Source: an uncultured delta proteobacterium (GTDB lineage: Bacteria > Desulfobacterota > Binatia > Binatales > Binataceae). Taken from it: 64,000 nt of DNA. The stretch lies in NCBI GenBank assembly GCA_963711565.1, contig CAVQEQ010000003.1, positions 1,408,001 through 1,472,000 on the forward strand, read 5' to 3'. Positions 2,013 through 15,415 of the stretch are shown here, one piece after another. A program made the position numbers and the translations under genes. Every line of letters begins with the position of its first letter. Positions within the stretch are counted from its first letter, which is position 1. The notes beneath the pieces were generated by a model. That model was not told the origin of the DNA. It ran no database searches and saw nothing but the letters and a program-made list of their open reading frames with translations.

Positions 2013-2702
2013 TTGAAAGCATCGGCAATAATAGTCGCGGCGGGCAGCGGCGTGCGGCTTGGGTCGAGTGTGCCCAAGGCGTTCGTGAAGATCGGCGGCC
2101 GCACGATGCTCTCCTATTCGCTCGTCACAGTTCGGCAGATCGATTCGATTAGCGAAGTTGTGATCGCGATTCCGAATGGATTCGAAAATGCTGCGCGCGC
2201 CGAAGTCGCCGCGGCCCGGCTTGGCGTGCCGGTCAAGATTACGCCGGGCGGAATCGAGCGCCAGGACTCGGTTCGAATCGCGCTGGAACTCACGAGCGCG
2301 GAAAGCGAGCTTGTGATCGTGCATGACGCCGCGCGCCCGCTGGCGACGCCGGCAATTTTCGAGGCGTGTCTAAGCGCGGCGGCCCGCGCCGGCGGCGCGA
2401 TCGCCGCGGTACCAGTGTCCGACACTCTGAAACGCATCGTGGACGGCGCGATCAGCGCGACCGTCGCGCGGGCGGGGTTATGGCAAGCGCAAACTCCGCA
2501 GGCATTTCGCCGCGACTTGCTGGTTGCGGCGCATCGGCGCGCCGTCAGGGAGGGAATCGTCGCGACCGATGACGCGGACCTGGTCGAACGAACGGGAGCG
2601 CGCGTCGAAGTGGTCGAAGCCTCGACCAACAACATCAAGATCACGACACCGTCCGACCTGGCGATAGTCGAAGCAATCATCGCCGCGCGAATGGTCAACT
2701 AA
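2013..2702 (+). CDS. ispD: 2-C-methyl-D-erythritol 4-phosphate cytidylyltransferase
   Basis: AAGSGVRLG..PKAF, GGIERQDSV, VHDAARP, QAQTPQAF, TDDA, NIKITTPSDL; TTG start. Confidence 0.95.
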   Translation: MKASAIIVAAGSGVRLGSSVPKAFVKIGGRTMLSYSLVTVRQIDSISEVVIAIPNGFENAARAEVAAARLGVPVKITPGGIERQDSVRIALELTSAESELVIVHDAARPLATPAIFEACLSAAARAGGAIAAVPVSDTLKRIVDGAISATVARAGLWQAQTPQAFRRDLLVAAHRRAVREGIVATDDADLVERTGARVEVVEASTNNIKITTPSDLAIVEAIIAARMVN

Positions 2703-2705
2703 TAG

Positions 2706-4700
2706 CTAAGATGAGGTCCGGAGGCGGCGGGTGTCGCCTACTCGGGTCGTAACGCCGATGTGATCGAAGTGATCGAGCAGCGCGATTGCGAACTTGCGCG
2801 ATGCGCCCAGCAGGTCGCGGAATGTCGCAGCGGTGATTTCCGGGTGAGTCGCGAGATATTCGACCAGGCGATCCTTTGCGGTGTCGGCGGCGGCGCGGCT
2901 GAAATACAGATCGGTGGCTATTTTCATGACGCGACCCTCACGCTCCATCGCGAGCAGCACGGTTCTTAGATGAGGGAGCTGCCCGGAGGGAATTTTCAAA
3001 GCCTCGGCCAGCTGCTTGAGATCCGGGGGCTGGAATTCTGCGCGCGTCAGCGCGGCTTCGATTTTTCCACCGAGCGTTTCGGCGTCACCGCCTAGTTGCA
3101 CGCGATGACTTTTCAAGCGCAGCACACTTTCCTCGCGCACAATTTCTGACTCATGGCTGAGGCGATCGACGATCGGGCGGAACGCGCGCGCGCCGATTTC
3201 GTAGGGCAGCCGCGTGCGCAGCGCTTCCATCTCGAGGCCCGGCGATAGCGGCTCGGTTTTGTGGTGCACTGCGAGCTCGTCGAGCGCGAAGCGTTTGAGC
3301 GCATCCCGTCTGGTGCGCGTGGTGAAAGCTTCTTCGTCGCCGACTGACAGCTTAATGAAGCGCTGCGCTTCGCGAAGCGCTACTTCGGCCTCCGCGTCGG
3401 GGATGTTCATGAGGGTTGCGATGCTTGTCGTGCCGAGCGCGAAACTTTCCTGCAGATTGATCAATGCTTCGAGCGCATTGCCGCCGGACGAATCCTTGAG
3501 CGTGCGGAGATTGGCGCGATAGGACTCGATCGGCTTGCGGACGCGGCGCCCCAGCGGATTCAACACGATGCCGCCGCCGAGAGTGCGCGAATTGGTTTCG
3601 TCGCGGATGACGAAGCGGTCGCCCGCCAGCGCGACGACAGGGTCCTCGGTCACGAGTTGCACGAGACCAGCGGCTTTGGGCGCGATCGAATAGTGGAGCG
3701 GGCCGCCGTGCCCGCTCTCTTCAGCGGCGGGCACGGCGGCCCGCCCCACTACTCCTGCCTCCTCGAGCACGATCGCACGCGCGATGGTCTCGGCAGTACC
3801 GATGAACAGTCGCACACGGGTGTTGTTCTTGAGCGCGCGCTTGGCGGCGGGACGAATCTCGAGCCATGCGTCGAAGCGCGAGGTCGCGGCGTCGAGCCGC
3901 TCGTCGGCCAGCACGTCGCCGCGGGAGAGATCCAGCTTTTCGGCGCCGGTGAGATTGAGCGCGACGCGCTGGCATAGACCGGCGCTCTCGACCGGGTCCG
4001 AATGCACCTGGATCGAACGCACGCGCACCTCGCTTCCCGACGGGAGCACGCGGAGCTTGTCGCCGACGCGCACCTCGGCGCCCATCGCAGTGCCGGTCAC
4101 GACGATGCCGTGTCCTTTGATGACGAACGCGCGGTCGAGTGGCAGCCGGAAGATGCCGGTGGCGCGCCGCGCCTGGAAGCCGTCGAGCTGTCGGACGATC
4201 TCGGCGCGTAACTGGTCGAGCCCCATGCCGGTGATCGACGAGACCTCGATGACCGGCGCGCCGGCGAGCGTGGTGCCGTCTGCCAGCAGTTCGATTTCAT
4301 CGCGCACGTCGCGGATGCGCGCGGCGTCGGCAAGGTCAGCTTTGGTGATCACGAAGATGCCGCGGCGCGTGCCGAGCAGATGCAGGATGTCGAGATGCTC
4401 CTCGGTCTGCGGCATCACGCCGTCGTCGGCAGCGACGGTGAACAGCACGAGATCGATCCCGTGTGCGCCGGCGAGCATATTGCGGATGAAGCGCTCGTGG
4501 CCGGGGACGTCGACGACGCCGGCGCGAGTGCCGTCGGGCAGTGTGAAGTAGGCGAAGCCGAGGTCGATGGAAATCCCGCGCTCCTTTTCCTCCTTGAGGC
4601 GATCGGTGTCCTGTCCCGTGAGCGCCCTGATCAGCGCGGTCTTGCCGTGATCGATATGGCCGGCGGTGCCGATGATGGCGTGAGTGGTGGGAGAAGCCAT
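2706..4700 (-). CDS. selB: Selenocysteine-specific translation elongation factor
   Basis: [37 protein letters not shown]-terminal winged helix [20 protein letters not shown]; start moved to ATG 4700. Confidence 0.97.
3691..3751. repeat. REP/MITE-like palindrome inside selB (25-bp arms, 24/25 complementary, 11-nt loop)
   Basis: tagtggagcgggccgccgtgcccgc-N11-gcgggcacggcggcccgccccacta read directly. Confidence 0.85.
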
Positions 4701-4764
4701 CGTGGTGCGAATGTTATACTGCTCGGCGCGTGAGCCAAAGCGCGGATCGTGAAAGGGGAAGGGA

Positions 4765-5889
4765 GTGGGAAAGGCAACACGGGGACTTTGGATTTTCGGA
4801 CTAACTGCGATCGCGCTCGGTGGCTGCGGTGGCGCGCAGAATCGGCAGTCTATGCTTCCGACGGCGCAGATTGCGGCGCCGCTCAAGCTCTGTCCATCCG
4901 CGACCGCGCCGCCGAACGACCTTCTCGCCAACCCCGGCTTCATACAATTCGCGGTCTCGGTAACGGACTCGACGGGTAAGCCGGTCACCGGTCTGAAGCA
5001 ATCGGATTTCGCAGCTCACGAGGGCGGTCAAATTCTGCCGATTCAGTACTTTCATGAGGAGCCCGACGGCGCGCCAACGTCGATCGTCATCGTCATGGAC
5101 TTATCGGTATACATGGCCACCGGACTGGTCCCCCATCTGCGCAAAGTCGAAGCGGTTCAAAAAATGCTGCCTGGCGCGGTGAACAAGCTGAATGGGTGCG
5201 ACGAAATTGCGATATTGGTGTTTGGCGGCAACGAGTTTGCGGACGAGCATGCTAGCAGCCAAACGCTGAATCCTGGCGCTTACGAGGACCCTCATCCAAC
5301 ACCGATCAGGCTGATACAGCCCTTTACGACCGACCATCAACTGGCGCTGATGCGTCTGGAGTATCGGACAGCAACCGGGCTTGCGCCGCTATACGACGGG
5401 ATCCAACAAGGACTGAACGTACTGGAGTCGGCTCATTATCAGAATCGCGCGCTGATCGTTATTACCAATGGAGCGGACGACGCGAGCGAGGTCGAAAAGG
5501 AGGACCTGATCGCCAGCATCAACCAGAGCCGTGTGCCGCTTTACGCGATCGAACTTGGCAAACCCAACGCCCCCGCCTTCCGTAGTCCTCCTACCATGGT
5601 GATTCTCCCATATCCGATTCCCATCAAGATTGGAGACAGCCCACTCGTCGATACAGGAACGCTCGTGAAGCTGACGGCGCCGAACGGCGGCCAGTTGTTA
5701 ATCGTTCCGCACCCGACGTACGACCCCGCCGTGACGCTGAATGACGAGCTCAATTCGACGGTGACGGCTCTCAACCACGGGTACTCGATCGGAGTAGTCG
5801 CGCCCTCGGGAGCGGCGCGCCCCGAGATTGTCCTTGCGAACCGACCTCAGATCAGGGTGAGAGCGCACGCGGTTCCCCGCTTGCAATAG
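4765..5889 (+). CDS. VWA-domain lipoprotein
   Basis: Lipobox LGGC; VSVTDSTGKPVTGLKQSDF, SIVIVMDLS, LYDGI, RALIVITNG typical of VWFA-related proteins; MIDAS degenerate. Confidence 0.75.
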   Translation: MGKATRGLWIFGLTAIALGGCGGAQNRQSMLPTAQIAAPLKLCPSATAPPNDLLANPGFIQFAVSVTDSTGKPVTGLKQSDFAAHEGGQILPIQYFHEEPDGAPTSIVIVMDLSVYMATGLVPHLRKVEAVQKMLPGAVNKLNGCDEIAILVFGGNEFADEHASSQTLNPGAYEDPHPTPIRLIQPFTTDHQLALMRLEYRTATGLAPLYDGIQQGLNVLESAHYQNRALIVITNGADDASEVEKEDLIASINQSRVPLYAIELGKPNAPAFRSPPTMVILPYPIPIKIGDSPLVDTGTLVKLTAPNGGQLLIVPHPTYDPAVTLNDELNSTVTALNHGYSIGVVAPSGAARPEIVLANRPQIRVRAHAVPRLQ

Positions 5890-14317: not shown

Positions 14318-15415
14318 CTAAATATCCTCGGGGCCCGGGTAGTACTTCCCATCGCCGAGCGAATCGACCGCGGCCCAGAACTCAGGACCGCCCGGCTTCA
14401 TCGGATCCTCGAGCGCCCAGGCCTGCCGCTTGTAGTTCCAGCTCTCCGGCCTCAGCCGCTTGGCTTCCTCGAAATATTTCTGCGCCGCCTCCGCGTGTCC
14501 ATGCTCGAACAGAAACTCACCGAGCCTGAAATTCGCCGCCGCGCTGACCTGTGTGTCGTCCGGCGTATGCATTCGCCTGAGCACTTCCGCCTCGCCGAGC
14601 GCGTAACGGCTTTCCGATCCCTTCGCGACCCAATCGCGAAGCGCGTCGAGGTAAGCCTTACGCTTTGCCTGCAGCTCGTTCATCGCGTCGATCGGAATCG
14701 AGAAGTTGGTGCGATTCATCTTGCGGAATGCGTCAGTGACGCCGGCGGGTTCGCTCGGCCGTACGATCTTGCCGCGCTCATCGATCCAGACGGCGGTCGG
14801 CACGTTGACCATGTCGTAAAGCTCGGCGACGAGATGCCGCCGATCGATCAGGCACGGATAGGTGGGCTTGGCAGCCTTGATCCACGGCTCGGTCGCCGCA
14901 TTGCCGCCACTGTCGAATGCGATCGCGATCGGCACGAATCCTTTTGGCCCGAGTTCTTCGTAGAGGGCCTGCCAGACTGGCAGGTCAAAGCGGCATCCTC
15001 ACCACGACGCCCATGAAACGACGAAAACTTTCTTGCCGCGATAGTCGGACAGCGAATGCATCTTGCCGTCGAGATCGGGCAGGCTGAAATCCGGCGCGTC
15101 GAGCGAGGTCAGCATCCGCTTTCTCTCGGCCGCGGCCTCGCCGAAGCACCATGCGCCAAACTCCGCGTCCGTCACGACAGGTTGTCCGAGCAGACTAGCC
15201 AGCGCCGCGAGATTGTAACGCCCGCCCGCAACGAACTCGCTGATCCGCGCGTCAGGCACCGGCACGCACACGTCGCCCCTGCAGAATCCCTGCGGCTTGA
15301 ACTCCCACCCGCTGACCCGCTTCAGATCGTCGCCGTCAAACCACAACCCGCCGCCGGTCGATTCGGCATCGACGCCGCTCGTAACGCGCTCGCCGTATAT
15401 AATGTCGACTGCCAT
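14318..15415 (-). CDS. TlpA/ResA-like thioredoxin-fold selenoprotein (WAxxUGC motif; Sec UGA at 15001-14999), 365 aa
   Basis: ORFs 14999..15415 and 14318..14935 are in the same frame, separated by one TGA: APDFSLPDLDGK..SWASW*GCRFDLPVWQALYEEL. Confidence 0.88.
14968..14984 (-). promoter_or_regulatory. Candidate bacterial SECIS hairpin
   Basis: CCUGCCA-GUC-UGGCAGG starting 14 nt after the UGA; loop begins with GU. Confidence 0.6.

Follow-up and report, generated by a model that had tools for sequence, protein, structure and literature searches.

The window that we analysed is a stretch of 64,000 nucleotides from an uncultured delta proteobacterium of soil (G000:C3:1408001-1472000, where G000 is the source genome, 94.9% complete). 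It contains selB, and within this gene we observed two inverted arms (3688-3715 and 3727-3754) of 28 nt each, which are 93% complementary and lie 11 nt apart (Table 1). The coding-strand RNA of this palindrome was calculated to form a hairpin of 29 bp (-67.6 kcal/mol, z = -11.2), and none of 200 shuffled sequences was as stable. The original prediction, made from the letters of the window, had described a near-perfect palindrome of 61 nt. These letters were borne out, as TAGTGG...CCACTA occupies 3691-3751. The prediction had further placed a segment of 63 nt coding for 21 residues at 3690-3752. The size was right: the insert adds residues 317-337 to SelB and the frame is kept. The codon-aligned coordinates were 2 bases off, since the net insert is 3688-3750 when it is anchored on G049, a genome of another species that carries the insert as well. 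We confirmed that the palindrome in selB is real, and a short-read contig of 284 nt from run X1 crosses 3597-3880 with 0 differences. X1 probably represents another strain than G000, since 47 of 1401 letters differ between them around selD.

Table 1. Features of the selB locus in the window and single in-frame REPs in other genes of G000.
Feature	Position	Strand	Remarks
selB, open frame, 664 aa	2706..4700	-	TIGR00475 367 bits (cut-off 242); PF25461 at residues 284-382; insert in domain III
Full hairpin, both arms and spacer	3688..3754	.	4 left host-side bases lengthen the stem in G000, not in G049
4-nt tail past arm 2, within the 63-nt net gain	3688..3691	+	common to G049; seen on comparing both inserts with empty alleles
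REP arm 2, inverted, GTGGAGC variant	3692..3715	+	reverse reading codes SGHGGPLH; exact variant at 2 other places in G000
Doublet spacer, 11 nt	3716..3726	-	from comparison of the arms
REP arm 1, A-GTGG tag and GGCGGGC/GCCCGCC hairpin, consensus copy	3727..3750	-	codes VGRAAVPA; 36 exact copies in G000
AhpC/TSA-family gene with in-frame TGA at ~15001, followed by a small hairpin (context)	14318..15415	-	likely SelB client
In-frame REP, fmt	G000:C1:291337		over NCBIfam cut-off; carried by 7/30 loci, 8/34 with extra loci
In-frame REP, gpmI	G000:C3:172830		over NCBIfam cut-off; carried by 7/30 loci, 11/38 with extra loci
In-frame REP, mnmE	G000:C1:1105092		over NCBIfam cut-off; carried by 1/30 loci
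In-frame REP, rdgB-like	G000:C1:1037501		below NCBIfam cut-off; carried by 1/30 loci
In-frame REP, LuxC-like	G000:C1:270292		below NCBIfam cut-off; carried by 3/31 loci, plus one decayed copy

The arm of 24 nt is a repeat that G000 contains 59 times when up to 3 mismatches are allowed, 36 of these copies being exact, and 10 shuffled arms gave 0 copies, so the check for other copies that the original prediction had proposed was positive. The repeat is present in 25 of 47 genomes of the genus (0 matches for the reversed control). Its tag is an invariant A-GTGG (G59, T59, G58/A1, G58/A1 in the 59 copies), and the base at -1 of AGTGG is variable (C29 T17 A9 G4). The prediction had read the tag as GTAG; these letters are present in selB, but the family is tagged by the subsequent GTGG, as the base before AGTGG varies. 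GTAG variants of the tag occur in G046, G020, G054 and G055. Directly behind the tag GGCGGGC pairs with GCCCGCC around a loop of 6 nt, and thus a single REP is itself a small hairpin. In G000 the REPs occur singly and in tandem. Though 82% of the genome is coding, 52 of the 59 copies lie outside genes and 7 are intragenic, as judged with our own hexamer-model gene caller. Two of nine REPs counted as lying inside genes (C1:504707 and C4:1135933) were excluded, because they are upstream of the likely start codon.

A gene for a REP-associated tyrosine transposase (RAYT) is located on another contig than selB (approximately C1:341155-341598). It codes for 147 aa of the Y1 type with an HVH motif, and it scores 81 bits against NF047646, which passes the cut-off of 80 by 1 bit. 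Inverted REPs were found on both sides of 8/8 loci at least 82% identical to this C1 RAYT, compared with 0/12 other RAYT loci. By its tag, palindrome, many mostly intergenic copies and RAYT flanks, the repeat fits, at the level of sequence, the published definition of GTRG-family REPs, which is a GT(A/G)G tag with a palindrome (PMC3686654). The selB element is therefore a doublet of this REP, in which 11 nt separate the arms and a tail of 4 nt lies past arm 2. It has two close inverted REPs that form one long hairpin, as a REPIN does. Compact REP doublets with spacers of 9-30 nt are present in 7/47 genus genomes, and among the 12 examined in other genomes none had a convincing host gene.

Some further features of the family were observed. 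The upstream sides of the REPs are mildly enriched in GAT-type words (GA[AT]T in 14% versus 6% of shuffled sequences, 252 copies), and in 203 of the 252 the base before the tag is a pyrimidine; these signals may belong to the REP element itself rather than to the target. Five intergenic REPs of G000 (C2:80436, C3:121691, C3:408626, C3:410298 and C3:867916) share an extra hairpin and tail found beside RAYT genes of the genus, as if they were derived from RAYT ends. A second RAYT-family gene (G000:C3:1344707-1345099, 102 bits) is 35% identical to the C1 RAYT and has its own inverted flanks, with none of the present REPs adjoining.

The original prediction had called for an empty site in close relatives, and this was found. 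Among 35 selB loci of the genus, 32 are shorter by exactly 63 nt, two carry the insert (G000 and G049) and one has an unrelated gain of 6 nt. These loci come from 34 genomes; in 12 of the 47 genus genomes selB had no match at the DNA level, and 1 further matching genome was left out. We also fetched 66 metagenome selB loci, of which 59 span the site and are all empty, and 7 do not span it. No joint of the empty allele at selB was detected in the contigs of four runs, and contigs drop rare variants. The longest exact matches between empty sites and the REP were mostly 4-6 nt, with no excess over a background mean of 4.5, in a comparison that anchored only 2/8 rdgB and 5/8 LuxC-like empty alleles.

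The insert of G049 has an equal length, the 11-nt spacer and the 4-nt tail, and its arm 2 is decayed. It differs from that of G000 at 9/63 bases, compared with 36% at synonymous sites, and nearly all of these base changes alter the peptide; 6/21 residues differ. The hairpin is weaker as well (-46.3 kcal/mol). In a 90% cluster of SelB proteins the insert is present in 7/7 members that reach the site, and an eighth ends just before it. The proteins of this cluster are labelled Candidatus Binatus sp., as is the record of the closest RAYT, and the source lineage is probably Ca. Binatus.

The insert falls in a loop of SelB, as the original prediction had supposed. In an AlphaFold model of a 232-aa piece, built with 36 sequences (mean pLDDT 85), it forms a low-confidence loop that connects two strands of the domain III barrel (128-136 and 169-180) and in which residues 144-158 have pLDDT below 50. 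Low pLDDT is expected here, because only 2/36 rows cover the insert. Better evidence for tolerance is the naturally varying length of this loop, which is approximately 9 residues shorter in SelB structures 5LZB and 4ZU9 (E. coli and Aquifex) and 11 longer in 4AC9 (Methanococcus). Foldseek with the model returned SelB/EF-Tu folds. Domain 3 of SelB is in contact with tRNA-Sec at its T and extra arms, according to passages that do not name this loop (PMC4605307). The domain III loop likely takes the 21 extra residues and is itself likely dispensable. The proposal that a REP-family element sits in frame in a surface loop of SelB was supported.

SelB itself is under normal purifying selection. Its mean dN/dS was 0.119 (range 0.107-0.156, fifth lowest of 31), a pairwise measure which is blunt for recent relaxation. 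G000 also has selA, selC (tRNA-Sec) and selD, and the sole tRNA-SeC is at C1:1184871, on a contig other than that of selB. In the assembly selD has a one-base frameshift near its start (L239:2379, on C3); contigs of X1, X3 and X4 have the extra base and an intact frame. The SelD protein has Cys, not Sec. A second AhpC/TSA gene (G000:C3:542458-543069, + strand) has a TGA at its redox motif as the window gene does, and in both a similar small hairpin follows within 20 nt after the TGA. These features suggest that the two genes likely encode selenoproteins with a lineage SECIS-like element. A TGA lies inside 59/60 genus matches to the window gene, counted anywhere within the match. No Sec codon was seen in the inspected stretches of G000 molybdopterin enzymes. 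Judged by its dN/dS and its surroundings, the selB gene looks to be in use. Eight genus genomes have no match to either selB or the window AhpC/TSA gene. There are in-frame TGAs in two further genes of G000, which we take to resemble nicotinate phosphoribosyltransferase (C1:96054, - strand) and alanine dehydrogenase (C4:1357202, + strand); each may be a nonsense change, an error or read-through.

Beside selB, five genes of G000 contain single in-frame REPs (Table 1). The original prediction had missed these, as it had missed that the selB insert is a doublet of two REPs and that it occurs in another species. The net gain is +27 in gpmI, +27 in rdgB, +18 in mnmE and a pure 63 nt in selB; in the LuxC-like gene the REP replaces host codons, with a net change of -3. 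Intragenic REPs of G000 are read in five frame/strand combinations. The carrier fractions given in Table 1 run high, because loci were ranked by likeness to the insert-bearing query. In quick trees both the fmt carriers (p-AU = 0.007) and the gpmI carriers (p-AU = 2e-5) were rejected as clades, and the six-gene tree, with 8/34 and 11/38 genomes as carriers, requires at least 6 changes for fmt and at least 8 for gpmI. Junction lengths vary among the carriers and every carrier genome has at least 10 REP matches. Repeated insertion, lateral patches or exact loss could scatter the fmt and gpmI carriers in this way, and the first two of these are what the results suggest. We also fetched 180 REP loci from six other genomes (30 per genome, of 32-58), and 12 of them lie in an open frame that matches a G000 ORF on both sides, and at least 2 of these 12 may precede the true start.

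Several individual copies were also seen. The LuxC-like gene of G055 has two in-frame REPs at different sites (L609:1683 and 2187). The gpmI inserts of G051, G054, G053 and G046 (L221, L224, L105 and L219, respectively) have partial tandem second copies, with the frame kept where it is readable. In gpmI of G049 (L218) the REP is a shortened remnant and the frame is shifted, perhaps by a long-read error at the hairpin.

We compared two further SelB proteins with the two carriers. P0004 is a third SelB, about 85% identical to both, and has at the same site the peptide GHGGPPH, which corresponds to a single REP. A clade of G000, G049 and P0004 was compatible with the data (p-AU = 0.83), and so was a clade of G000 and G049 (p-AU = 0.68 for selB, 0.33 for six genes); G001, which is empty, falls between these two in the six-gene tree. 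P0007 is 17 residues away from G000 SelB. Over residues 290-365 it matches G000 against G049 at 13/13 informative sites, and its arm 2 has the G049 residues T332, P335 and N336. The arm 2 variant of G000 occurs at two other places in that genome and is distinct from arm 1. This suggests that arm 2 was converted from another REP copy. Probably there was one old insertion, in which arm 2 decayed and was then overwritten to the consensus in the line of G000, a history read from sequences that for P0007 consist of the protein only. A tiny recombined patch would be an alternative to the overwriting of arm 2. The contrast of 9/63 with 36% would be equally expected from a lateral patch or if two insertions had occurred recently.

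We consider, with a probability of roughly 0.8, that the palindrome is a GTGG-type REP doublet which was put in frame into selB, likely by the RAYT that this repeat flanks, and which is likely translated as a harmless loop. RAYTs have been shown in vitro to cleave single-stranded REP DNA and join it again (PMC8266576), and REP doublets excise as asymmetric hairpins (PMC3116915). The C1 RAYT would have cut and joined single-stranded DNA and so placed the doublet in selB, once, before the lineages of G000 and G049 split. Insertions that break the frame or the fold would be purged by selection, and the survivors would be those in frame and in loops. Arm 2 would have decayed, and in the G000 lineage a different REP copy would later have converted it to the family consensus; gene conversion of this kind may keep the surviving REPs near the consensus. 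The loop of 21 residues is predicted to be translated and harmless, and a benefit for the host would be unnecessary.

The doublet could instead have entered the selB site independently in several lineages, as a hotspot, or a short recombined patch could have moved between species. This is what the single-REP peptide of P0004 at the same site would suggest, together with the rejected clades of fmt and gpmI carriers, their many changes on the six-gene tree, the varying junctions and the many REPs of every carrier genome. However, the common length, spacer and tail at selB and the decayed arm that P0007 has with G049 argue for one origin there, with which the compatible clade of G000, G049 and P0004 agrees. 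Microhomology of the empty sites to the REP is not above background, and the carriers are over-represented, since loci were ranked by likeness to the query. We regard this explanation as unlikely, though it deserves to be taken seriously. It is considerably less probable that the hairpin is kept to tune selB expression, through pausing, RNase cleavage or mRNA stability, or that the loop has gained a role. The level of SelB is thought to need control (PMC8124441), the hairpin is very stable, and the insert has survived a split of dS ~0.49 and is found in every member of the 90% cluster that reaches the site. Nevertheless, it is absent from 33/35 genus loci and 59/59 metagenome loci, its peptide varies between the carriers, the hairpin of G049 is weakened, and a search of 2600-5000 for a tRNA-Sec structure or another Rfam family gave no match at gathering score, only weak matches to miRNA hairpins.

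The insert might also be tolerated because selB is decaying, or it might be an artefact of assembly. The frameshifted selD of the assembly and the 12/47 genus genomes with no selB DNA match would agree with this, but the extra base in the X1, X3 and X4 contigs restores the selD frame, the dN/dS of selB is normal, and an independent contig spans the insert, which other assemblies contain as well; we consider either case very improbable. We give hardly any credence to a MITE of the IS630/Tc1 type, which would have inverted repeats at its termini and a duplicated TA as its target, an origin that the original prediction had entertained. It had pointed to TA at both ends of the 61-nt palindrome, and in G000 these letters are indeed there, but they are no duplicated target: the empty alleles read GGC GCG ATC and lack TA, and in G049 the copy has CA at its start. 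The arms are also found alone or in tandem, and they flank a Y1 gene. Of the transposases for which the prediction had proposed to look, RAYT was found and IS630 was not, with 0 PF13358 (DDE_3) matches in the 94.9% complete G000.

GT(A/G)G REPs, REPINs and RAYT/REPtrons share with the present elements the 5' GTRG tag, the short palindrome, inverted doublets and copies that bracket a Y1/HUH gene over NF047646 (Nunvar 2013, PMC3686654; Bertels and Rainey 2011, PMC3116915; PMC8266576). Here, in contrast, the sequence family is new, the lineage is an uncultured deltaproteobacterial one, the copies number approximately 60 and not hundreds, and the doublet is predicted to be translated. Intragenic GTAG/CGTC REP dimers code for 20-30 residues in genes of housekeeping and RNA-binding proteins, and were proposed to be neutral in loops; in one case, two Xanthomonas species had different REPs at nearly the same place in recB (Di Nocera et al. 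2013, PMC3733652). The selB doublet is of this type, whereas empty-site and tree tests, repeated site use and in-place overwriting are absent from the consulted parts of that article. A search of its text supplements, which perhaps do not include the intragenic table, gave no match for selB, fmt or gpmI terms.

Rickettsia RPEs (Ogata et al. 2000, as cited in PMC3184786 and PMC3733652) are palindromic and lie in frame, in several frames, in housekeeping genes. The selB element does likewise, and in-frame insertion is seen in six genes of G000. RPEs are, however, approximately 105-146 nt long (PMC3184786), and the selB element has 63 nt and is linked to RAYT. A tRNA-Sec nested in selB (Mukai 2021, PMC8124441) is, as predicted here too, a structured nucleic acid translated in frame in SelB. 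It has 93-96 nt and lies at the C-terminus of SelB, whereas here a REP is in domain III and the tRNA-Sec gene is on another contig. In a literature search limited to titles and abstract openings, no prior report was found of a REP in selB, of REPs in Binatota or of same-site intragenic insertion. Intragenic REP dimers are already published; what would go beyond them is that sites are used repeatedly and arms are overwritten in place.

The spread of REPs is called unresolved (PMC8266576). Conserved genes keep the sequence from before the insertion readable, and filled and empty alleles therefore give exact junctions. Such allele pairs, together with one apparent overwritten arm, inform the still open question of how REPs spread. 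For SelB, the insert marks a domain III loop that likely accepts 21 extra residues. We put forward, tentatively and at somewhat less than even odds, that in this genus REP/RAYT re-inserts in separate lineages at fixed loops of gpmI, fmt, the LuxC-like gene and selB and rewrites decayed intragenic arms to the consensus. If this is true, a domesticated transposase would edit loops of translation and glycolysis proteins again and again, and REP spread would have left a natural record in the filled and empty alleles.
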